This document shows, in pieces, positions 1,763 through 23,141 of a stretch of 32,000 nt of DNA. Both the position numbers and the translations under genes were made by a program. Position 1 is the stretch's first letter, and each line of letters starts with the position of its first letter. The DNA is from Gammaproteobacteria bacterium (lineage in GTDB: Bacteria; Pseudomonadota; Gammaproteobacteria; JBIOEC01): the NCBI GenBank assembly GCA_965279305.1, contig OZ257143.1, positions 570,001 to 602,000 on the forward strand, written 5' to 3'. Below the pieces are notes generated by a model. The model was not told where the DNA came from. It saw only the letters and a program-made list of their open reading frames with translations, and searched no databases.

Positions 1763-2598
1763 TGAGGATAAAACCACTCACCTTCGGATACTACCGTTGC
1801 GGATCCTGTCATCCATACGGGATCCGCATCTCCACCTAGCCATTCAATAGTTAAATGCCCGCCTGGCAATGCCACATCCACCGTATCTTCTACCCACTGG
1901 TGGCGACGTGCTATCACCATGGCAGCACAAGCCCCGCTACCACATGCCAATGTTTCGCCTACTCCGCGTTCAAATACGCGTAATTTAATATGGCGCCGGT
2001 CACTCACTTTCATCAAACCTACGTTAACACCCTCTGGGAAAGCGGTATGCGTATTTAAAGCGTGCCCCCATTCGTGTAGCAACTTCTCATTGCCATCTTC
2101 TACTAAAATAAGCGCATGTGGGTTACCCATGGAAACCGCATAAAAAGAAACATCATGCCCTAAAATAGAAATAGAGTATTTTTCTTCTTGAGGTAATATC
2201 AAAGGCAAACTGCTGGCCAGAAAATTAGGCGTACCCATATTCACTTTCACATTACCATCCGGCAATTGAATTAACTCCATGATCGTATTTTTGGTAGCGA
2301 CCATTAATTGCTTTTTATCTGATAATTTTTTTAATTGAATAAATTTCGCCAAACATCGTGCGCCATTACCGCATTGCCCACTGGTGCTGCCATCCGCATT
2401 ATAAATGGTATAACCAAAATCCACTGTGGGAAAAGGAGCAGCTTCTAAAATTAATACTTGATCGCAACCAATACCATAATTACGATTGGCAATTAATTGA
2501 ATATCTTCCGTCAGTAGTTCTATATTTTTAGCGATATTATTGATTACTACAAAATCGTTTCCTAATCCATGCATTTTAGTAAAAGGTATTTTTTTCAT
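1759..2598 (-). CDS. dapF: Diaminopimelate epimerase
   Basis: FTKMHGLGNDFVV N-terminus and both catalytic Cys motifs (GNGARC, ACGSGACA). The ATG at 2598 overlaps the lysA stop (ATGA), so the ORF-track start at 2619 is less likely. Confidence 0.9.
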   Translation of the reverse strand: MKKIPFTKMHGLGNDFVVINNIAKNIELLTEDIQLIANRNYGIGCDQVLILEAAPFPTVDFGYTIYNADGSTSGQCGNGARCLAKFIQLKKLSDKKQLMVATKNTIMELIQLPDGNVKVNMGTPNFLASSLPLILPQEEKYSISILGHDVSFYAVSMGNPHALILVEDGNEKLLHEWGHALNTHTAFPEGVNVGLMKVSDRRHIKLRVFERGVGETLACGSGACAAMVIARRHQWVEDTVDVALPGGHLTIEWLGGDADPVWMTGSATVVSEGEWFYPQ

Positions 2599-3839
2599 AG
2601 TAGTTTTTCTTTTTCCCATAAGTCTTCATCTGTTTCACGCTCACGGATCAATACTGGACCTGCATCCGTTAATAATATTTCAGGAACTCGTGGACGTGAA
2701 TTATATTGTGAGCTCATTACAAACCCATAAGCACCGGCGTCTTTCACCGCTAAAAAATCTTTTTCTTCCGCAAACAAGGTTCTGTCTTTTCCTAAAAAAT
2801 CGCTGCTTTCACACACGGGGCCTACCACATCACACAAAAATGTAGCATTATCTGTTTGTTTTAAAGGAACAATATCTTGCCATGCATCATATAAAGCGGG
2901 GCGGATTAAATCGTTCATTCCCCCATCCACAATAATAAAGTTTTTATCGGCTGATTTTTTAACATATTGCACCTCTGTTAAAAAAACACCGGCTTCAGCT
3001 ACAATTGAGCGACCAGGCTCTAAAGATAAGCTAATAGAGCGGCCTTCTAAGCGTTTAATCATCGCTTGGATTAATTCTTTTGGCGTAGGAATTTTTTCAT
3101 TTTGATAAGGAATACCTAAACCACCACCCATATTAATTTTCTCTATCACTATGCCTTCTTTCTCTAATTGATCGACCAGCGTTAAGATATTATCTAGCGC
3201 TTCAATAAAAGGTTCTATTTCTGTGATCTGAGATCCAATGTGGCAATCCACACCAATCACTTTAATATTCGGCAATTGTTTTGCATAACGAAATGCCTTT
3301 AACGCATCGTCCATGCTAATACCAAATTTATTTTCTTTTAAACCGGTACTAATATAATGGTGAGTTTTTGCATCCACATTCGGATTAACACGCAATGCTA
3401 CAGACGCAAGCGATTTACCCTGCTGCGCAATTTTCTGTATGCGATCTAATTCAGGAATAGACTCTACATTAAAACAATAAATATTTTTTGATAAGGCATA
3501 TTCAATTTCATCCTCTGTTTTACCAACGCCTGAAAAAATAATTTTAGCAGGATCGCCGCCCGCTTTTAGCACACGCTTTAATTCGCCAACTGAAACCAAA
3601 TCAAAACCTGCGCCTAATCGTGCCAATAATTGAAGTACAGCTAAATTACTATTGGCTTTAACGGCGTAACACAATAAATGAGGGAAACCATGAAAAGCAT
3701 CTTCATGAGCTTTCCAACGTTCTTCAATCATCGCTTTTGAATACACATAGCAAGGAGTACCAAATTTATTCGCAATATCTATGAGTGAAGTATTGCCACC
3801 ATGCAAAACACCTTCGCGATACTGCCAAAAATTATTCAT
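2595..3839 (-). CDS. lysA: Diaminopimelate decarboxylase
   Basis: 414 aa. PLP-lysine motif CYAVKANSN, plus GGGLGIPY, EPGRSIVA and CESSD motifs typical of fold-III PLP decarboxylases. Sits immediately upstream of dapF. Confidence 0.9.
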   Translation of the reverse strand: MNNFWQYREGVLHGGNTSLIDIANKFGTPCYVYSKAMIEERWKAHEDAFHGFPHLLCYAVKANSNLAVLQLLARLGAGFDLVSVGELKRVLKAGGDPAKIIFSGVGKTEDEIEYALSKNIYCFNVESIPELDRIQKIAQQGKSLASVALRVNPNVDAKTHHYISTGLKENKFGISMDDALKAFRYAKQLPNIKVIGVDCHIGSQITEIEPFIEALDNILTLVDQLEKEGIVIEKINMGGGLGIPYQNEKIPTPKELIQAMIKRLEGRSISLSLEPGRSIVAEAGVFLTEVQYVKKSADKNFIIVDGGMNDLIRPALYDAWQDIVPLKQTDNATFLCDVVGPVCESSDFLGKDRTLFAEEKDFLAVKDAGAYGFVMSSQYNSRPRVPEILLTDAGPVLIRERETDEDLWEKEKLL

Positions 3840-14203: not shown

Positions 14204-14836
14204 CTAAACAGGTGTTCCAAAATGTTGATCGTATGCGGATTTTGGAGGAACAGGAGCAGCCTTTACTGCCGCCACTTTAGCACGCCGTTCTTTTAATTCT
14301 ATTAATCTTGCACGCTGCGCGACCATTGTTTCTCGCGCTGCAGCCGATTGTTGTTGGGCCGCTATAAAATCATTTCCTTTTTGCTCTATCACCTGTCCTG
14401 CTTCTGTATACAGAGCTTGTTGATAGGCCGTATTAGTTCGAAGTAGACTATAAAGACTTTCTAAAGCTAAAGGAGCAGAAATATTCTCCATAACAGCTAA
14501 CGCACCCTCTTTATCTTTAGAAACACGTTTGGAAATAATAAGTGTGTCGGCAATTCTTTCGGCAATAATTTTTTTTATAATAGGCTCACTTTGCTCTGAT
14601 AGTGCAGGCTCTTGTGCGGCAATATTATGTATCAATACAAGAAAAGAAGGGTTATCGTTATCATCAAGCATCATCGTACTCAAAACTTGCTTCACAAGAT
14701 CAAAATTTTCATCCGAAATAGATTCGGTTTCTGTTTTTGTTTTTGTGAATAATGCCTGCTTTACTAAATTGTAAAAATCTTTTCGCTCCAAATAAGCTTG
14801 TCGATCAAAACCAGATGAACTAGAATTAGCGAACAT
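14204..14836 (-). CDS. Hypothetical protein (module copy 1, gene A)
   Basis: The ORF-track start at 14896 is a TTG codon. The ATG at 14836 has GGGAG 7 nt upstream (MFANSSSSGFDRQAYLERKDFYNLVK...). Paralogue of 12640-13554. Confidence 0.55.
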   Translation of the reverse strand: MFANSSSSGFDRQAYLERKDFYNLVKQALFTKTKTETESISDENFDLVKQVLSTMMLDDNDNPSFLVLIHNIAAQEPALSEQSEPIIKKIIAERIADTLIISKRVSKDKEGALAVMENISAPLALESLYSLLRTNTAYQQALYTEAGQVIEQKGNDFIAAQQQSAAARETMVAQRARLIELKERRAKVAAVKAAPVPPKSAYDQHFGTPV

Positions 14837-14944
14837 AAAATTGCTCCCGAATGAAGACTGATCACTTGATAATGCGAGTAGAGTCTGGCATAGCAAAAAA
14901 CGACTGTCAAATTGGAGTGAAGAAATATTAGAAAAAATATTTGA

Positions 14945-15808
14945 TTATTGAGGAGCTTGACGTGAAAGAGCCAGTAACGCTTCAGCAGCTGGAGCAGGAT
15001 CCGAGGCTACAGGCAAATACAATGCTACAGGTAACAACAATTCATCTGCTACGTTAGCCGCCTCTTTATCGCGTGATTCAATAAACACTAAAATCCTACA
15101 AGCATCGGTATGACCTTGTGCAGCAGCCCTTCTAAACAAATGAATGGCCGTGTCTTTATCTTGTATTACGCCTATTCCTTTTAAATAGAAAAGACCTAAC
15201 ATATATTGTGATTCATGATGATTTAGTTCGTCCGCTTCTGCAAACCACGCAGCCGCCAAATTTAAATTTTGAGACATACCAGTTCCCTGTAAATAAAGCA
15301 TCCCTAAATTAAATTGCGCTTCTGCTAAATTCTGATTAGCGGCACGCGTTAACCAATTTATTGCCAAATCATAAGCGCCTTCAGCTGTGCCATCAAGAAT
15401 CATTACAGCCAAAGCATTTTGTGCATTTGCATAGCCCTGCTCTGCTGCTTGTTTAAGATAACGAGTGGCTTCTGCATAGTCTACATTCATACCCATTCCA
15501 TCTCTATATATGATACCTATATTATAAATAGCGGGAATATAACCTAATGCAGCTGCACGCAGAAAACACTCGAAAGCCAGCGTATAATCTCGTTTTACAA
15601 CTCTGCCCTGAATATACTTTGCTCCTAATTCAAATAAAGTATTCGCATTAGTCTCTGACATAATCTTAGCCATTATCGCTATGTTAGTACCAAGAGGCCG
15701 GCTAGTGCTCGTCCACATCGGATCTACATCAGAACGTAATTCTTTAGGCGTTGTTTTCACAATCTGGGGAGCAGGAGCCAGGTTAGCGGAAGAGGGATTT
15801 CGGTACAT
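14945..15808 (-). CDS. Sel1/TPR-like repeat protein
   Basis: Repeated ~36-aa Sel1 units (ATRYLKQAAEQGYANAQNALAVM; AINWLTRAANQNLAEAQFNLGMLY; AAAWFAEADELNHHESQYMLGLFY; AIHLFRRAAAQGHTDA). Confidence 0.85.
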   Translation of the reverse strand: MYRNPSSANLAPAPQIVKTTPKELRSDVDPMWTSTSRPLGTNIAIMAKIMSETNANTLFELGAKYIQGRVVKRDYTLAFECFLRAAALGYIPAIYNIGIIYRDGMGMNVDYAEATRYLKQAAEQGYANAQNALAVMILDGTAEGAYDLAINWLTRAANQNLAEAQFNLGMLYLQGTGMSQNLNLAAAWFAEADELNHHESQYMLGLFYLKGIGVIQDKDTAIHLFRRAAAQGHTDACRILVFIESRDKEAANVADELLLPVALYLPVASDPAPAAEALLALSRQAPQ

Positions 15809-15845: not shown

Positions 15846-18554
15846 TTACACCACTAGAACAGTTGCCGTTATTCTAGGACGCGGCGGCACATGCGGACGC
15901 GGAGCATAAGGCTTTAATACATCCGGTACTGTTTCCACAACAGGGAAAGAAATGGTTCTTACTTTTACCGCAGGCTGATCTAAAATGTCTTGTAGTTCTT
16001 GAAGTAGTTGATTAGTTCCTTTATTTACTCTGGTTCTAATTTTATTAGGATTTTTATTAAGTTCTGTTTCAAATCGTTTTATGCTTTTTCTTATTCCTGT
16101 TATTTTTCCTACACTATTGTCGTTAGAGATAAACAAATCCAATACAATTTCTTTTAAAAATTTATTATAATAAGGCGCTTCAACCCCTGGAATTTTATTA
16201 AGCGCTTTAACAAATTTAGTGATCATTTCTTTAATAAAAACCAATTGATATTGAGCTAAACGTTCTTCATAAAATTTTGTACCAACATTGGTTAAAATAC
16301 TCAATGAATATTTAACACTATCATTGGGAGGTAATATTTTTTGATATAAATCGATAAGCTCATACACTTGTCGCTTTTTATTCGCTAAATCTAGCGCAAT
16401 CCCTAATGCCGTTGCGGCGTACGCAAGAGGAGCGCTTTCTTCATCTTCCACCATTTCATAGAAAATAACGCCTATATCTGACAAATCGTTAAATAAAGGA
16501 GGCAAGCAAATAGTTTTTGTTATTTCATTTCTAAATATACCTACAAACGTTTCTGTTGCATCATCTGCTGAATCCAGCTCTAATTCGGCAATCTTATCTG
16601 ATCTTAATATTTCAGAGAATCTAGCTTTCAACGTTTTTCCAATAGCTTCTCTTTCTTTTTTATTATTAAGATATTTAATAGCTAACTCTATTGTCGTTTC
16701 CTCTGTTTTTGCAGGAGGAGAGTCTGGCGTGCTCACGTGCTCTTGATTTTCATCTCTATGCACTTTTGCACAATAATCAGGAATATCATTTAAACAGTGA
16801 TTAATTTCCGCTATAAATTCACCCCCCTCATTGCTTAATGAACGAGATGAGCGGCCAGAACTAAGAGATGCTATATCTACCGAATGTGAAGAACCATAAG
16901 CTTCCGCAAAAACCATCAGTCTTTGTTCGAAAACAGAAAGTCTATCCACCACGGGAATATCTCTATCGAAAAGAACGGTATACCAAGGCATTTCTTTTGG
17001 ATAGCCTAAAACATCCGAGAAATCATTAGCATCTAAAAATGCGCGATACTTTGCGCAAATTCGCTTTAAAAATAGAATAGTATGTTCAGCTGCAGCATCA
17101 GCACTGTTTTCATTTTTTGTAAGATTTTCTAGAAAATGTGCTGAGGCAGCAAGATTATTTGAGGATTTATAATAGGCCTCTAATCGTTTAAAATCATGCT
17201 CTCGTTTAATTTCGGAAATAACATCTACCAATGCTTGTTGTAGCACCTGCATCACTTCATCATCTTGTAATAAATATACAGTAGAAAACGATTCAAACGC
17301 TTTTGACATTTGATTCACATTTTTAATAGATAATAGCTCAACGCGATTTGTATTCTTATGAGCATATTGATCTTTTATATTTTTTTTAAGATAATCAGAA
17401 AGTGGCACAGCAAATTCTGTGGCATATATCTCTTCTTCTGGATCAGCTGATGCATATTCATTGTATATGCTATAAGTTTCATATTTATCCTGATAATCCT
17501 TAGTGGTTACATGCCAGGCCATTAAATTTTCAAAAAACACATTTGCGACGGGTTCAGAAGTAGGGTTAAACAAATGAGCCAAACCAGATTCAACCAAACT
17601 GCTATTCGAATTTACTAAGGCTTCTTTGCAATGAAGGGTAGGACAATCGATAATCAAAGCAATCGCATTTTCAAACTCAAAAAACGATCTTTCTCTATTT
17701 TGCGGATTTTCCTCCCCAAAACATTCTCTAATATTATTTTTTATTTTATTTCCCAACTCATGCAATGCGTTTTTAAAACGATATAATCTGACAACAGCGG
17801 ATGATGTGGTTTCAGTCAATAAAATATCTTTTAGCTTTGCAATATGCGTCGCAAGCGCGGGGCTGCTTGAAAGTTCTCTTTGATAAAGACGAAAACGAAT
17901 TTGTATAAAGTGAATAATATATTCCGCATAACGTTCACTATAAGAATTATCCTCTTGTTCCAAAATAGAAGACGCCTGATAAGCCGAGCTACGTACCACA
18001 GGCATATTTTCATATTTTCTTGCTAGCTCTTCTACTTCCGCTTTAAAATAATTTAACTTCACCAGCACTACCGCTAAAGCTGCATAGGCTAACCGTTCAA
18101 GAGGAGCGGAAGAACTTGAAACTAAAGAGCTTAATTTTTCGCAAATATCAGTAACACTTCCCTGAATACCAAGATCTTCAATTTTATATTCAGCGTGTTC
18201 AGCCATCATATAAGAAACAAAATAATCGATAACCCATAATTCCTGGTCACTATCGCTTATGTTTTTATCTTTAATCCACTGAGGAGCTGCTTTAACTACA
18301 GATTGCATGGCAGCCGATAGCTTGGATTGGTTCAAAGGAGAGTTTTCTACCTTTAAAAAGTACTTGGCTAATTGCGTAATACTAGGGGTAACGCTATCAG
18401 GAGAAGGGGGCTTTTTAAGTGAACGTGAAGCATCAAAGACTATCCCGCGAAAGGTTGAACTCAATATATCAGGAACGTCAAAAAGAGCGGCCGATTTGCC
18501 AGGCAAACGCATCGCTTTTGAAGCCTCAGCTACTAATACTCTGGTATTTAACAT
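15846..18554 (-). CDS. Large hypothetical protein (902 aa) with an internal module duplication and a Pro-rich C-terminus
   Basis: Uninterrupted 2.7-kb ORF starting at ATG with an AGGA-type RBS. No motif I can assign. Two ~180-aa segments look homologous (SSAPLERLAYAALAVVL...YSERYAEYIIHFI vs ESAPLAYAATALGIAL...FYEERLAQYQLVFI). Confidence 0.6.
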   Translation of the reverse strand: MLNTRVLVAEASKAMRLPGKSAALFDVPDILSSTFRGIVFDASRSLKKPPSPDSVTPSITQLAKYFLKVENSPLNQSKLSAAMQSVVKAAPQWIKDKNISDSDQELWVIDYFVSYMMAEHAEYKIEDLGIQGSVTDICEKLSSLVSSSSAPLERLAYAALAVVLVKLNYFKAEVEELARKYENMPVVRSSAYQASSILEQEDNSYSERYAEYIIHFIQIRFRLYQRELSSSPALATHIAKLKDILLTETTSSAVVRLYRFKNALHELGNKIKNNIRECFGEENPQNRERSFFEFENAIALIIDCPTLHCKEALVNSNSSLVESGLAHLFNPTSEPVANVFFENLMAWHVTTKDYQDKYETYSIYNEYASADPEEEIYATEFAVPLSDYLKKNIKDQYAHKNTNRVELLSIKNVNQMSKAFESFSTVYLLQDDEVMQVLQQALVDVISEIKREHDFKRLEAYYKSSNNLAASAHFLENLTKNENSADAAAEHTILFLKRICAKYRAFLDANDFSDVLGYPKEMPWYTVLFDRDIPVVDRLSVFEQRLMVFAEAYGSSHSVDIASLSSGRSSRSLSNEGGEFIAEINHCLNDIPDYCAKVHRDENQEHVSTPDSPPAKTEETTIELAIKYLNNKKEREAIGKTLKARFSEILRSDKIAELELDSADDATETFVGIFRNEITKTICLPPLFNDLSDIGVIFYEMVEDEESAPLAYAATALGIALDLANKKRQVYELIDLYQKILPPNDSVKYSLSILTNVGTKFYEERLAQYQLVFIKEMITKFVKALNKIPGVEAPYYNKFLKEIVLDLFISNDNSVGKITGIRKSIKRFETELNKNPNKIRTRVNKGTNQLLQELQDILDQPAVKVRTISFPVVETVPDVLKPYAPRPHVPPRPRITATVLVV

Positions 18555-18747: not shown

Positions 18748-19140
18748 ATGAGATTTTATGCAGTTATCTTGGTTTTAGCGTCATTCTTAACATCCGGCTG
18801 CTCTGTATATATGGCCGCCAAAGGAAACAACGGTACAGACTTAGATGAAATTACAGAGTGCAAAACCAGAGGCTGTTTAATAGCAGCTGGCGCCCAACCC
18901 ATAGGAGCCCAAAAAGACAAAAATGGCGACTACACCTCTGAAACCTTTAGAATCATCAAACCCACCGGATCGGCTGCAAGAGCAGCCATGCATGGCGTAC
19001 TTGATCTCGCCACCTTTGGGATTTGGGAAGTTGCCGGAACACCGATAGAAGGCTATCTAGGAAAAGAAGAATCCATCGCCATCAAAGTAAATTACGAACA
19101 CGATGGCAACACCATTGATTCAATGTCCATCGAACAATAA
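18748..19140 (+). CDS. Lipoprotein of unknown function
   Basis: Signal peptide plus lipobox (MRFYAVILVLASFLTSGC). 130 aa. An 88-bp internal segment is duplicated at 20897-20984. Confidence 0.7.
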   Translation: MRFYAVILVLASFLTSGCSVYMAAKGNNGTDLDEITECKTRGCLIAAGAQPIGAQKDKNGDYTSETFRIIKPTGSAARAAMHGVLDLATFGIWEVAGTPIEGYLGKEESIAIKVNYEHDGNTIDSMSIEQ

Positions 19141-19161
19141 TTGCTAAATTAAAACCTATCG

Positions 19162-19196
19162 ATGTAATTGCGCCACAAGCGGTGTCGCAATTACAT
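19162..19196 (+). other. Long hairpin downstream of the lipoprotein gene
   Basis: 11-bp perfect stem ATGTAATTGCG / CGCAATTACAT enclosing CCACAAGCGGTG. That core is related to the CCACAARCTGTGG hairpins at 20374 and 20838. No T-run follows. The 3' foot coincides with the right end of the segment missing from the duplicate copy. Confidence 0.55.
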
Positions 19197-19270
19197 TAGC
19201 ATTGGCCAAATCGTAATCCATCTCTCACCCCAAAATCATCCAAATGGAACTAGTATTTTATTTCTATTTT
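19197..19270 (+). repeat. Leader repeat copy A (upstream of PanA copy 2)
   Basis: TAGCATTGGCCAAATCGTAATCCATCTCTCACCCCAAAATCATCCAAATGGAACTA... It recurs at 20985-21060 with roughly 85% identity by eye. Confidence 0.8.
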
Positions 19271-19336
19271 ATATTTTTCCCGATAGAATTATTTTAAATT
19301 GATTCCTGTACGAAATAATTTAAAAACGAGATATTT

Positions 19337-19795
19337 ATGGCTACGTGTTTTGATGCTGCAAAATATATTCTTGAAGTAAAAAATGAACTGCCTGTCGTTA
19401 AATTGCAAAAATTACTTTATTACGCACAAGCATGGTCTTTAGTTTGGGATGAAGCACCCTTATTTAAAGAAAATATAGAAGCATGGATCAATGGCCCTGT
19501 GATCCCCGTATTGTATGAATTTCACAAAGGTAAATACTCTATACAATCAGCTGATTTACCCGATGCATCTTCAGATAATTTAACAAGCAACCAAAAAGAT
19601 ACGATTAATCAGGTATTAAATTACTACGGAAATAAATCACCACAATGGTTGAGTGATTTAACCCATCTCGAAGATCCCTGGAAAAATGCACGCAAAGGAA
19701 TTCCACCAAACGAAAGAGGTAATAGCTTAATTAGTTTGGCAGATATGAGCGAATACTACTCTTCGCTCCCTCCAGAGGACAATGTAGATGTCTAA
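19337..19795 (+). CDS. Panacea-domain (DUF4065, SocA-like) putative antitoxin, PanA copy 2
   Basis: 152 aa. VKLQKLLYYAQAWSLVWDEAPLFKENIEAWINGPVIPVLYEF and LTHLEDPWKNARKG fit the DUF4065 pattern very well. Confidence 0.82.
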   Translation: MATCFDAAKYILEVKNELPVVKLQKLLYYAQAWSLVWDEAPLFKENIEAWINGPVIPVLYEFHKGKYSIQSADLPDASSDNLTSNQKDTINQVLNYYGNKSPQWLSDLTHLEDPWKNARKGIPPNERGNSLISLADMSEYYSSLPPEDNVDV

Positions 19796-20243
19796 AAATA
19801 AACAAGCAAAAATTTATCGTAAACCATCTATTGAAAACCAAATCAGAACAGCTGGTACAAATCAACATCGCATTACTAACACACTTGATCATCATCCTGT
19901 TTGGCAATTAAAAATTATCGATATGGAACATAAAAACTGGGGATGGAAAAACATACAAGGACAACTTCAAGAAGTTCTCTCAAAACTAAAAGATTATGAA
20001 ACCATGCAATGGAAAGAAATTAAAAGTAACAACGCTCGGGATCACGCAGTAGAAACGGATAAGCTAAACACCGAAGCAAAAAAACGTCTTCAAGAATTAA
20101 AACTTGATGACGTAGGACAGCTATATAGACTTAGACTAAGCGGTACCCAAAGAGTATGGGGTATTTTAGACGGATACATCTTTAAAATTTTATGGTGGGA
20201 TCCTAATCACACCGTATGCCCCTCTGCCAAACGAAACACCTAA
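19788..20243 (+). CDS. Hypothetical 151-aa protein, candidate PanA-neutralised toxin (possible RelE/ParE-like C-terminal sheet)
   Basis: The ATG overlaps the PanA stop by 8 nt (GTAGATGTCTAA). I recognise no family. The C-terminal LYRLRLSGTQRVWGILDGYIFKILWWDPNHTVCP has a strand-turn-strand pattern resembling the last three strands of RelE/ParE-fold toxins (inference). Confidence 0.55.
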   Translation: MSKNKQAKIYRKPSIENQIRTAGTNQHRITNTLDHHPVWQLKIIDMEHKNWGWKNIQGQLQEVLSKLKDYETMQWKEIKSNNARDHAVETDKLNTEAKKRLQELKLDDVGQLYRLRLSGTQRVWGILDGYIFKILWWDPNHTVCPSAKRNT

Positions 20244-20345: not shown

Positions 20346-20373
20346 TTACCCTAAGCAAGTGAATATCCAATTG

Positions 20374-20396
20374 GTCCACAAGCTGTGGACTTTTTT
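20374..20396 (+). terminator. Hairpin + T6 (terminator-like boundary element X)
   Basis: GTCCACA-AGC-TGTGGAC followed by TTTTTT and then CAATGTCA. Confidence 0.55.
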
Positions 20397-20531
20397 CAAT
20401 GTCATATTTCCATCTCCAATAACAACCTCTAAATATCTCTTATCCTCTCTTACATCTATTAAATTGCTTTAATCAAAACCTAGTCTACACTCCAAACACA
20501 GACAATATCGCACAAAAAGGAACTTTGAAAT

Positions 20532-20804
20532 ATGAGATTTATTCTTATACTGCTTCTATCAATATTTACTACAGGAATCGTAACTGCAAATGATATTCAA
20601 AATAACGAATTAAAATCCAGCATAGTTTGCCCAGAAGTTTCAGCTAATGAATCGCAAATAGAAGGTGATAATACAGAACTAGCAAAAAGCGGTTGCTGCT
20701 CTTGGCATGATGGAGTCTGCGGATGTTCTGGCGGAAGAACACAATGCTGTGATGGCACAACAAGCCCTTCCTGTACCTGTTACGGCAATATGCCTGTGGG
20801 ATAA
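20532..20804 (+). CDS. Small secreted cysteine-rich protein
   Basis: Signal peptide MRFILILLLSIFTTGIVTA. The mature C-terminal 35 aa hold 9 Cys (GCCSWHDGVCGCSGGRTQCCDGTTSPSCTC). AAGGA RBS. Followed by a hairpin + T6 terminator. Confidence 0.6.
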   Translation: MRFILILLLSIFTTGIVTANDIQNNELKSSIVCPEVSANESQIEGDNTELAKSGCCSWHDGVCGCSGGRTQCCDGTTSPSCTCYGNMPVG

Positions 20805-20837: not shown

Positions 20838-20860
20838 GCCCACAAACTGTGGGCTTTTTT
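20838..20860 (+). terminator. Rho-independent terminator (boundary element Y hairpin)
   Basis: GCCCACA-AAC-TGTGGGC followed by TTTTTT. Same architecture and flank (TTTTTTCAATGTCA) as 20374-20404. Confidence 0.65.
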
Positions 20861-20888
20861 CAATGTCAAACGTCAAAATTTGACCCCA
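20860..20888 (+). repeat. GTCAA-triplet motif, copy 1
   Basis: TCAATGTCAAACGTCAAAATTTGACCCCAT contains two direct GTCAAA units plus one inverted unit, forming the palindrome GTCAAA-A-TTTGAC (20872-20884). It matches 21949-21977 at 27/30. Confidence 0.7.
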
Positions 20889-20896
20889 TATCATTT

Positions 20897-20984
20897 TCAA
20901 ACCCACCGGATCAGCGGCACGAGCAGCTATGCATGGCGTACTCGATCTCGCCACCTTAGGAATTTGGGAAGTAGCCGGAACACC
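20897..20984 (+). pseudogene. Fragment of a lipoprotein gene paralogous to 18748-19140
   Basis: 88 bp align without gaps to 18956-19043 with 8 mismatches. It encodes ...MHGVLDLATLGIWEVAGTP versus MHGVLDLATFGIWEVAGTP. There is no start or signal peptide. The 3' part is replaced by the leader repeat. Confidence 0.8.
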
Positions 20985-21060
20985 TAGCAATGGCCAAATC
21001 GTAATCCATCTCTCACCCAAAAATCATCCAAACAGAACTACAAATTCCATTCTATTTCTT
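20985..21060 (+). repeat. Leader repeat copy B (upstream of the DUF3800 gene)
   Basis: TAGCAATGGCCAAATCGTAATCCATCTCTCACCCAAAAATCATCCAAACAGAACTA..., homologous to 19197-19270. Confidence 0.8.
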
Positions 21061-21216: not shown

Positions 21217-21924
21217 ATGAACTCTAAAGTCATTTTTTTGGATGAAAGCGGTGATCTAGGATGGAAATTCGATTCTCCTTACCGGCACGGAGGCTCAAGT
21301 CGTCACCTCACTATTTCTGCTGTTATTCTTCCAGAAAGTAAAAAACACCTGCCAGCACGACTGATAAAAGATTTATATATAAAATCTAAATGGCCAACAA
21401 AGCAGGAAAAGAAATGGGCAAAAATGAGTGCAAAAGAGCGCTATGATTTTGCTTGTTCAGCGAAAAACTTAATAGATTTAAATTTTGATATTGAATACCT
21501 TTCAATTACTGTTTACAAACCTAATGTGCATGATCATATCAAGAAAGATGCTAATAAACTCTATAATTATATGATAGGGTTACTATTACTAGATAAAATG
21601 CAGATTTGTGACGAAGTATTATTTGTGCCAGATAGCAGAGAGCTTAAAGTGGCAGGAGGAAAAAGTTTGCATGATTATTTATTAACCCAGCTTTGGTTTG
21701 ATAGACATACCAAAACTCAAGTAATAAACCAGCCTAGAGATAGCGCTTCAGACAAAGGAGTCCAATTTGCAGATATGCTTTCCGGATTAATTCAACACTA
21801 TTTTGAAGATAAAAAAACAAACTTATTTTCCATGTTGAAAAATCAAATTAGTTTCAAAAAACTATATTTTCCTCAAAAGACTTCCGCTCGCACTATTAGA
21901 AGTGAAAAAGTGATTATTTTATAA
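21217..21924 (+). CDS. DUF3800-family protein
   Basis: 235 aa. The N-terminal VIFLDESGDLG and C-terminal VQFADMLSGLI correspond to the DES and QxxD motifs I remember for DUF3800. No SD is visible upstream of the ATG. Confidence 0.72.
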   Translation: MNSKVIFLDESGDLGWKFDSPYRHGGSSRHLTISAVILPESKKHLPARLIKDLYIKSKWPTKQEKKWAKMSAKERYDFACSAKNLIDLNFDIEYLSITVYKPNVHDHIKKDANKLYNYMIGLLLLDKMQICDEVLFVPDSRELKVAGGKSLHDYLLTQLWFDRHTKTQVINQPRDSASDKGVQFADMLSGLIQHYFEDKKTNLFSMLKNQISFKKLYFPQKTSARTIRSEKVIIL

Positions 21925-22578: not shown

Positions 22579-23043
22579 TTATTCAATCCCGATGCAAACA
22601 ATGCATTCATCCGTTCCTGGATAGATCTCAAAATCAGTTATATATTTACGTTTCACTTCAAGATTCTCATTAAAGAATTCCCAGATTTTTTTCCAGGTAT
22701 TAATGATGGTTTCAGGCATAGGCCCTTTAGATTCAAAAACTAGGTAGGTGCCTTCTTGAATATCAATTGTTTCAAATGCATCGCAGGGTTTAGAAACTGC
22801 CATACCGGCGGTTAAGTTATAAGCGCCTGAAAAATCAGATTCATAAGAAGAATATACGCCATAAATGGGAGAGTCTTTTAAACGATGAGGGATTTTTTCA
22901 GCTATATTTTCTGCAAAAAAAGTGCCCCAATGATTCGCTAGCTTTGCGGTAGCCGGATTAAATTCATCCTGGTTGTTAGTTCGAACAGTAATGCCGCTAA
23001 CCATAAATGCAGGAATTTGTTTTTGGGTTATTTTAACTGCCAC
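22579..23043 (-). CDS. GyrI-like / AraC-effector-binding-domain small-molecule-binding protein
   Basis: 154 aa with a GTG start. The pattern (F.V.GI.VRT.N......I..LW..F; YGVY..YE......Y...AG..V; GTY.VF...G) is typical of stand-alone GyrI-like domains. Confidence 0.65.
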   Translation of the reverse strand: MAVKITQKQIPAFMVSGITVRTNNQDEFNPATAKLANHWGTFFAENIAEKIPHRLKDSPIYGVYSSYESDFSGAYNLTAGMAVSKPCDAFETIDIQEGTYLVFESKGPMPETIINTWKKIWEFFNENLEVKRKYITDFEIYPGTDECIVCIGIE

Positions 23044-23064: not shown

Positions 23065-23141
23065 TGGTGGGCCCACTAGGACTCGAACCTAGGACCAAAG
23101 GATTATGAGTCCTCTGCTCTAACCAACTGAGCTATGGGCCC
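23065..23141 (-). tRNA. ileX: tRNA with CAU anticodon, most likely tRNA-Ile2 (lysidine type) rather than elongator Met
   Basis: The reverse complement GGGCCCATAGCTCAGTTGGTTAGAGCAGAGGACTCATAATCCTTTGGTCCTAGGTTCGAGTCCTAGTGGGCCCACCA folds as a cloverleaf: 7-bp acceptor, D arm GCTC/GAGC, anticodon loop CTCATAA, T arm CTAGG/CCTAG, encoded CCA. The C4:G69 and C5:G68 pairs and the TTGGTC variable region resemble E. coli ileX as I recall it. Confidence 0.88.

Follow-up and report, generated by a model that had tools for sequence, protein, structure and literature searches.

A PanA-paired protein of probable T1 type in a gammaproteobacterial genome, predicted to adopt a BECR RNase fold related to the Menshen effector NsnC

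The partners of the Panacea-domain protein PanA have been sorted into 88 clusters; T1 heads the list and, at 217 'pT1' entries, exceeds every other cluster in size (Kurata et al., 2022, PMC8832971; this survey and that of Ernits et al., 2023, PMC10440598, are cited throughout for the sections and table rows drawn upon here). The T1 rows listed are nearly all antitoxin-first with gaps of a few nucleotides (nt), range over Cyanobacteria, Fibrobacter, Bacteroidetes, Proteobacteria, Chloroflexi, and Mollicutes, and carry 'mRNase' as the predicted action of the partner (PMC8832971). All PanAT pairs examined in that study formed complexes, which is consistent with a type II mode of action (Kurata et al., 2022, PMC8832971), and direct neutralization of a toxin by a standalone Panacea protein has been demonstrated in another pair (Ernits et al., 2023, PMC10440598). 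A second described system of relevance is the Menshen defense system, in which the C-terminal effector domain of NsnC, PB-BECR1, is a predicted RNase domain with a YafQ-like RNase fold that carries the triad H-R-H in place of the H-D-H of YafQ (Li et al., 2025, PMC12065111). Here, a two-gene locus is described from a Gammaproteobacteria bacterium, in a 32,000-nt stretch of DNA that is referred to as the window (assembly GCA_965279305.1, contig OZ257143.1, positions 570,001 to 602,000), where a panA gene is followed by the gene for a 151-amino acid (aa) partner protein (Table 1). The locus is fairly ordinary in that it is one more PanAT pair of a catalogued class. With a probability of roughly 60%, it is a type II-like pair in which the partner is a BECR-fold RNase toxin silenced by PanA.

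The two open reading frames (ORFs) are located on the same strand, encode 152 and 151 aa, and have the coordinates given in the initial annotation, which was made from the sequence alone; the motifs that it quoted (KLQKLLYYAQAWSLVW, EAWINGPVIPVLYEF, HLEDPW, and LYRLRLSGTQRVWGILDGYIFKILWWDPNHTVCP) are all present in the translations. The partner ATG falls within the last codons of panA (GTA GAT GTC TAA / ATG TCT AAA), resulting in an 8-nt overlap, and a Shine-Dalgarno-like motif, AGAGGA, can be read inside panA 8 nt upstream of this ATG. The overlap confirms the tight coupling that had been proposed for the two genes, and both pair order and spacing are kept across related loci, in which the distance from panA to the partner gene is typically about -4 to +12 nt. 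As in the two-gene loci defined by Kurata et al. (2022), the genes are ≤100 nt apart and conserved across species, and the layout is the same as that of T1 PanAT pairs, in which a standalone Panacea gene comes first and is followed within a few nt by a gene for a 'hypothetical protein' of ~150 aa.

Pairing of the partner with PanA is effectively obligate. A PF13274 gene is located directly upstream of the partner in all six homologue loci for which called genes were available. When ORFs were called in every fetched locus and searched with partner and PanA hidden Markov models (HMMs), a PanA gene was found immediately upstream and in the same orientation in essentially every one of the 90 genome and metagenome loci, which represent more than 15 phyla. 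One apparent exception (L067) has an inverted PanA gene ~770 nt away and an extra gene inserted, and two loci with truncated partners (L029 and L087) look decayed. PanA also adjoins the partner in each of the 39 IMG/VR viral contigs that carry the partner, the pair occurs on two plasmids and in one phage record, and the module was further seen beside integrases. RefSeq labels such pairs 'Panacea domain-containing protein | hypothetical protein'. Since gene order and close spacing are preserved across the 90 genome and metagenome loci, the 39 viral contigs, the two plasmids, and the phage record, the two ORFs are real genes and not chance ORFs.

The first ORF encodes a Panacea (DUF4065) protein, as had been read from its motifs in the initial annotation. 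The Pfam model PF13274 (SocA_Panacea) matches residues 23-116 over its full length (model positions 1-113 of 113) with 72.8 bits against a cutoff of 25.7 bits (E 5.6e-20), phrog_1281 matches with an E-value of 2.4e-38, and the protein is 38% identical to the PanA of Salmonella phage Emek. Beyond the Pfam domain, a C-terminal extension with the consensus eRg..eIt.a.MaEYYsSL (80 PanA sequences from related loci) is a candidate partner-binding element. About a third of the PanAs that accompany a T1-type partner have an extra N-terminal extension of ~60 aa, giving forms of 200-217 aa.

The partner is matched by no Pfam model. Outside Pfam, it is matched by PHROG 8366 (E 5.5e-11, residues 11-145), by the PADLOC NsnC model (E 1.8e-5, confined to model positions 191-280 of 284), and by the NCBIfam model NF046006 of the MAG6450 family (33.5 bits, model positions 4-102 of 103). 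Since the last score is below the 40-bit cutoff, the partner lies outside the MAG6450 family proper and forms a sister group to it; both the MAG6450 family and PHROG 8366 are without known function. A word-indexed search returned only 18 relatives of the partner, and an exhaustive profile search returned 2,895 cluster representatives (50% identity level) at E ≤ 1e-3, with 1,996 of them at E ≤ 1e-10. A scan for the motif W[WY]DPxHx[VI][CY]P, run on a single genome of each species, yielded 569 confirmed partner loci, including those of Cyanobacteria, Planctomycetes, Acidobacteria, Desulfobacterota, Chlamydiae, Bacteroidales, Clostridia, Actinomycetota, and one Heimdallarchaeote. Among 112 diverse family members, MAG6450_fam matched 106 (over nearly the whole 103-position model) and NsnC matched 77, and no other model of the NCBIfam and PADLOC libraries matched these members. 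Pfam, searched with the same 112 members at a lax threshold of E ≤ 0.1, gave no meaningful match and only scatter, headed by the Tugs domain of eukaryotes (7 members, best E 2.7e-4) and by 18 families with a single member each. The initial annotation had proposed an undescribed or highly divergent toxin type, and this view does not hold against the numbers of representatives and loci, PHROG 8366, the sub-cutoff MAG6450 match, and the homology to T1 and to PB-BECR1 described below. The partner family is large and already catalogued, while it is biochemically uncharacterized.

The partner can be regarded as a probable T1-type PanT because of its homology to a T1-listed protein, YP_006560566.1; the source genome itself lies outside the T1 table. 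The window partner family aligns to YP_006560566.1 over 110 columns in hhalign (96.6% probability, E 6.6e-10) and scores 38.2 bits against it in hmmsearch, so that the protein is a remote but clear homologue of the family. Emek orf161 is YP_006560566.1, and its 62-nt overlap with orf149 agrees with the T1 table. In the rows listed, T1 has taxa in common with the partner family, including Cyanobacteria, Fibrobacter, Bacteroidetes, Proteobacteria, and Mollicutes, and the mollicute T1 members fit the Mycoplasma-derived name of the NCBIfam MAG6450 model. In Dulcicalothrix desertica, the homologue found here (WP_127082463.1) belongs to another locus than the T1 row of this species (WP_127081585.1).

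The Emek pair (14764-15637 in locus L092) is a P22-like prophage version of the module and lies near the Mnt/Arc/Ant region annotated at 16280-17945. This enterobacterial prophage pair has matches in 82 of 5,426 complete E. coli genomes, 48 of which have most of the pair. Ten T1 accessions were looked for among the listed rows of the NetFlax survey (PMC10440598) and none was present there; likewise, Anabaena cylindrica PCC 7122 has a T1 pair (WP_015217523.1 / WP_015217522.1) in the table of 2022 that does not appear in the rows listed for this species in NetFlax. Panacea pairs are 78% toxin-first in NetFlax (PMC10440598), in contrast to the mostly antitoxin-first pairs of 2022 (PMC8832971), and both differences between the surveys would fit a loss of T1 from NetFlax.

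The match to the PADLOC NsnC HMM joins the partner core to the C-terminal 90 model positions, which correspond to PB-BECR1. Both proteins have H-R-H conserved residues, and both have YafQ among their top structural neighbors. The candidate triad of the partner consists of His86, Arg122, and His141, and among 82 homologues D138, W136, and G125 are also invariant, with E71 conserved in 96%. Short local alignments place R122 opposite R65 of YoeB and R61 of RelE; they are non-significant and no evidence alone, and the pairing is consistent with the triad reading. The architectures differ, as the domain in NsnC is fused to an inactive PIN and works with the ParB-like NsnA (ParB-DUF262) and the ABC-ATPase NsnB, whereas the partner is free-standing, has a basic tail, and is paired with PanA. 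No NsnA or NsnB gene and no PIN region were found in or near the partner, the neighbors being PanA, a lipoprotein gene, a Cys-rich ORF, and DUF3800, and a Menshen system at this locus was ruled out. The connection drawn here between T1 and PB-BECR1 may be novel in a small way. The terms 'Panacea', 'DUF4065', and 'SocA' are absent from the main text of Li et al. (PMC12065111), and no mention of Menshen or BECR was met in the sections of PMC8832971 and PMC10440598 drawn upon here, where no search aimed at those terms was made.

The predicted structure points to the same fold class. An AlphaFold2 model built with 18 homologues has a predicted local distance difference test score (pLDDT) of 81 overall, 85-92 for residues 31-140, and 54-61 for residues 1-30, the latter belonging to an N-terminal tail whose mean net charge in 82 homologues is +0.16 per residue. 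A trimmed model of residues 36-151 has a pLDDT of 86 and a predicted template modelling score (pTM) of 0.78; trimming and re-modelling raised both measures, and the Foldseek E-values were no better. In the model, H86 is placed on the strand before the inserted helix (~95-103) and R122 on the second of three antiparallel strands, with the WWDPxH tail coming last. RelE-superfamily toxins make up 34 of the top 50 Foldseek matches in the PDB for the full model and 22 of the top 50 for the trimmed model, and the matches include HigB, YoeB, YafQ, HP0892/0894, RelE/RelK, ParE, PrpT, and the RelE domain of Cami1. Alignments of 106-109 columns gave TM-scores of 0.54-0.58 normalized to the 88-90-residue targets Sa2YoeB, YafQ, and HP0894. 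These long alignments extend over whole RelE-type chains, and therefore the entire fold appears to be matched, beyond the last 35 residues. A resemblance of the C-terminal strands to RelE/ParE-fold toxins, which the initial annotation had noticed, is thus supported by structure comparison, whereas its statement that ~100 N-terminal aa have no RelE counterpart is not, because residues ~36-145 are modelled as one confident domain and the additional parts are a ~35-aa tail and the inserted helix. RelE, YoeB, YafQ, and HigB, which are mRNA endonucleases that depend on the ribosome, share with the partner, as known here from the model, a similar topology, an Arg on the C-terminal three-stranded sheet, and a C-terminal His. 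They differ from it by having neither the ~35-aa basic tail nor the inserted helix, and by their antitoxins (RelB, YefM, DinJ, and HigA, as opposed to Panacea).

The mechanism proposed here adds RNase activity, toxicity, direct neutralization, and a trigger to the observed protein families, obligate pairing, and residue conservation and to the predicted fold class. The locus would be a translationally coupled module with the antitoxin gene in front. The partner would consist of a basic, disordered N-terminal tail and a divergent BECR-fold domain that resembles RelE/YafQ and belongs with PB-BECR1 in one family, and it would act as an RNase using His86, Arg122, and His141 with the help of Glu71 and Asp138. 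Cleavage of mRNA or of another translation-related RNA would then stop protein synthesis. The standalone Panacea protein would bind the partner directly and keep it inert in a type II-like manner, possibly via its C-terminal extension, and the RNase would be released once PanA is broken down or detects a trigger, for instance phage infection.

Several results weigh against this reading. Each single Foldseek match against the PDB is non-significant (E 0.5-5, probability ≤0.38), and phmmer and a 112-sequence profile gave chance matches only in the PDB (capsid, sigma-70). An hhalign comparison with a 30-sequence YafQ profile reached 0.3% probability, single YafQ, YoeB, and RelE sequences gave no signal against the family profile, and the RelE-type family models of Pfam (PF05016, PF15738, etc.) were matched neither by the partner nor by the 112 relatives. 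As there is no sequence link to YafQ, YoeB, or RelE, membership in the RelE superfamily rests on the fold and on the NsnC link. Furthermore, both T1 proteins tested, which are the only T1 proteins assayed, are given as 'not toxic' in E. coli, namely YP_006560566.1 of Salmonella phage vB_SemP_Emek and WP_077635758.1 of E. coli MOD1 (PMC8832971). The MOD1 protein probably belongs to the same 90%-identity cluster as the Emek protein, a placement that follows from a 147-aa member form and gap arithmetic (-20 vs -62); the MOD1 accession was not found among the cluster members listed. When aligned to the partner, the Emek protein keeps the equivalent of H86 and has Ser at E71, Ala at R122, and Phe at H141. 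Accordingly, the non-toxic T1 proteins appear to lack the equivalents of Arg122 and His141 (MOD1 by its probable cluster membership) as well as of Glu71, whereas the first two are invariant in the window subfamily and the third is nearly so. Because the tested variant is without two of the three putative catalytic residues, these data neither support nor refute toxicity of the triad-bearing members. Lastly, in Dulcicalothrix desertica PCC 7102 (2489-3447 in locus L030) an intact partner with its triad kept stands beside a PanA frame that falls into three or more pieces. Barring a sequencing error, the partner is tolerated there in the absence of its PanA, which argues against strong constitutive toxicity. 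The toxin role put forward in the initial annotation remains an inference, given that the only T1 proteins assayed were non-toxic in E. coli.

The two non-toxic proteins and the Dulcicalothrix locus would also suit an alternative, rather unlikely as a whole, in which the partner is a latent effector that is harmless alone and is activated by PanA acting as a sensor during phage infection. Panacea has been proposed to be mainly a sensor (Ernits et al., 2023, PMC10440598), the partner domain is common to the Menshen anti-phage effector NsnC, and the module is found on viral contigs and beside integrases. However, the non-toxic proteins say little on the triad-bearing subfamily of the window because two triad residues are missing from them, and overlapping genes with the antitoxin in front are the classical arrangement of type II systems. 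In addition, the A. guerrae protein AarT (WP_152878172.1; NetFlax node D3), at most a candidate relative of the partner, is RNase-like, has no HHpred hits, inhibits translation, and is toxic alone (PMC10440598).

The presence of ParE and PrpT chains among the Foldseek matches leads to a further alternative, namely that the partner has the RelE/ParE fold and is no nuclease but binds another target, as ParE poisons gyrase; proteins of this fold may have either activity (PMC10440598). This is improbable when set against the conserved core, in which the His, Arg, His, Glu, and Asp vary little or not at all, as is typical of the RNase branch. The closest relative detectable by sequence is moreover a predicted RNase domain with the same H-R-H triad, and YoeB, YafQ, and HP0894, rather than ParE, give the longest and best-scoring structural alignments. 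A type VI system like SocAB, in which PanA would be a proteolytic adaptor delivering the partner to ClpXP, is very improbable and was rejected. Panacea is the SocA domain, and PanA does give a weak match to the NCBIfam SocA_antitoxin equivalog (E 1.7e-12), yet its 47.4 bits fall so far under the 190-bit cutoff that it is a generic PanA and not SocA, the partner is unrelated to SocB, and the PanAT pairs of Kurata et al. all formed complexes consistent with type II.

Table 1. Positions of the panA-partner locus and its features in the 32,000-nt window
Feature	Position	Strand	Description
14-nt inverted repeat (I14)	19292..19325	.	Just upstream of panA; 86% complementary; possible operator
panA	19337..19795	+	152-aa standalone Panacea/DUF4065 protein; without N-terminal helix-turn-helix or other domain
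Panacea domain proper (PanA residues 23-116)	19403..19684	+	Full-length Pfam model match
PanA C-terminal extension (residues ~117-146, ..ERGNSLISLADMSEYYSSL)	19685..19774	+	Outside Pfam domain; conserved
Coupling junction	19774..19795	+	AGAGGA (19774-19779), partner ATG 19788, panA stop 19793-19795
Partner gene	19788..20243	+	151 aa; probable T1-type PanT; predicted BECR/RelE-fold RNase related to Menshen NsnC PB-BECR1
N-terminal Lys/Arg-rich tail (~35 residues)	19788..19892	+	Low confidence in model
Partner folded core (residues 36-145)	19893..20222	+	Predicted beta-alpha-alpha-beta-alpha-beta-beta-beta; RelE/YafQ-like, one inserted helix
His86 codon CAC	20043..20045	+	First residue of candidate triad; H in 96% of 82 homologues
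Arg122 codon AGA	20151..20153	+	Second residue of candidate triad; invariant in 82 homologues
His141 codon CAC	20208..20210	+	Third residue of candidate triad, in WWDPxHxVCP motif; invariant; Phe in Emek protein
Terminator-like hairpin + T-run	20373..20398	+	3' of pair; consensus scan only

The pair is located in chromosomal DNA of ~38-40% GC content with no compositional break, and rpoD, dnaG, and a tRNA-Met gene lie downstream. The inverted repeat ahead of panA is a possible operator of this gene; a sigma-70-like promoter was sought in 19141-19336 and none was called. Between the pair and rpoD/dnaG, there are a DUF3800 gene (21217-21924, +), a Cass2/GyrI-like gene (22579-23043, -), which is described as 'integron-associated effector binding', and the tRNA-Met gene (23065-23141, -), and they may form a small, variable islet beside a tRNA. 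No integrase was found among the neighbors in the window, and no att-type repeat of the tRNA-Met 3' end was found when one was sought. Upstream of the pair, a 902-aa protein with no Pfam match (15846-18554, -) adjoins a Sel1-repeat protein (14945-15808, -), and neighbors of this kind are typical of host-associated bacteria that are rich in effectors.

The PanAT pair and a 90-aa ORF are bracketed by two direct repeats, one of 88 nt with 91% identity (18956-19043 / 20897-20984) and one of 73 nt with 86% identity (19197-19269 / 20985-21057), that make up a duplicated 161-nt segment. The two repeats are contiguous in the downstream copy; in the upstream one, the 3' end of a 130-aa lipoprotein gene and a hairpin come between them, the first repeat lying inside the lipoprotein gene. 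The duplicated segment suggests a scar of local insertion, duplication, or rearrangement. The 90-aa ORF (20532-20804, +) has a signal-peptide-like N-terminus and a Cys-rich C-terminus (CCSWHDGVCGCSGGRTQCCDGTTSPSCTC), with no Pfam match. The sequence TTCAATGTCA follows a hairpin and T-run at the ends of several small genes (20395-20404 and 20859-20868, with 1-mismatch copies at 19119 and 21948); as a cassette-like boundary it is statistically weak, with 8 matches in the window against 3.4 expected.

In the reading preferred here, that of a BECR-fold RNase toxin silenced by PanA, the finding bears less on this single locus than on the partner family, which is homologous to the main predicted RNase effector of the Menshen defense system. 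In the table of the 2022 survey, T1, the largest cluster of PanA partners, owes its verdict to one type of protein from enterobacterial prophages, which is without two of the three residues that do not vary in the rest of the family, and the cluster may have been set aside because of a degenerate representative. At stake is whether several hundred 'hypothetical protein' genes beside PanA encode active RNase toxins, and whether PanAT and Menshen have an effector in common. We put forward tentatively, as a possibility that is somewhat short of even odds, that T1 proteins are mostly active H-R-H BECR RNases of which the tested prophage variants are degenerate, and that PanA is the trigger-sensing partner in a widespread abortive-infection module. 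If this is true, such a two-gene module would be present in at least 569 species genomes and in phages, and the same effector domain would serve two otherwise unrelated immune architectures, PanA-BECR and Menshen NsnABC.

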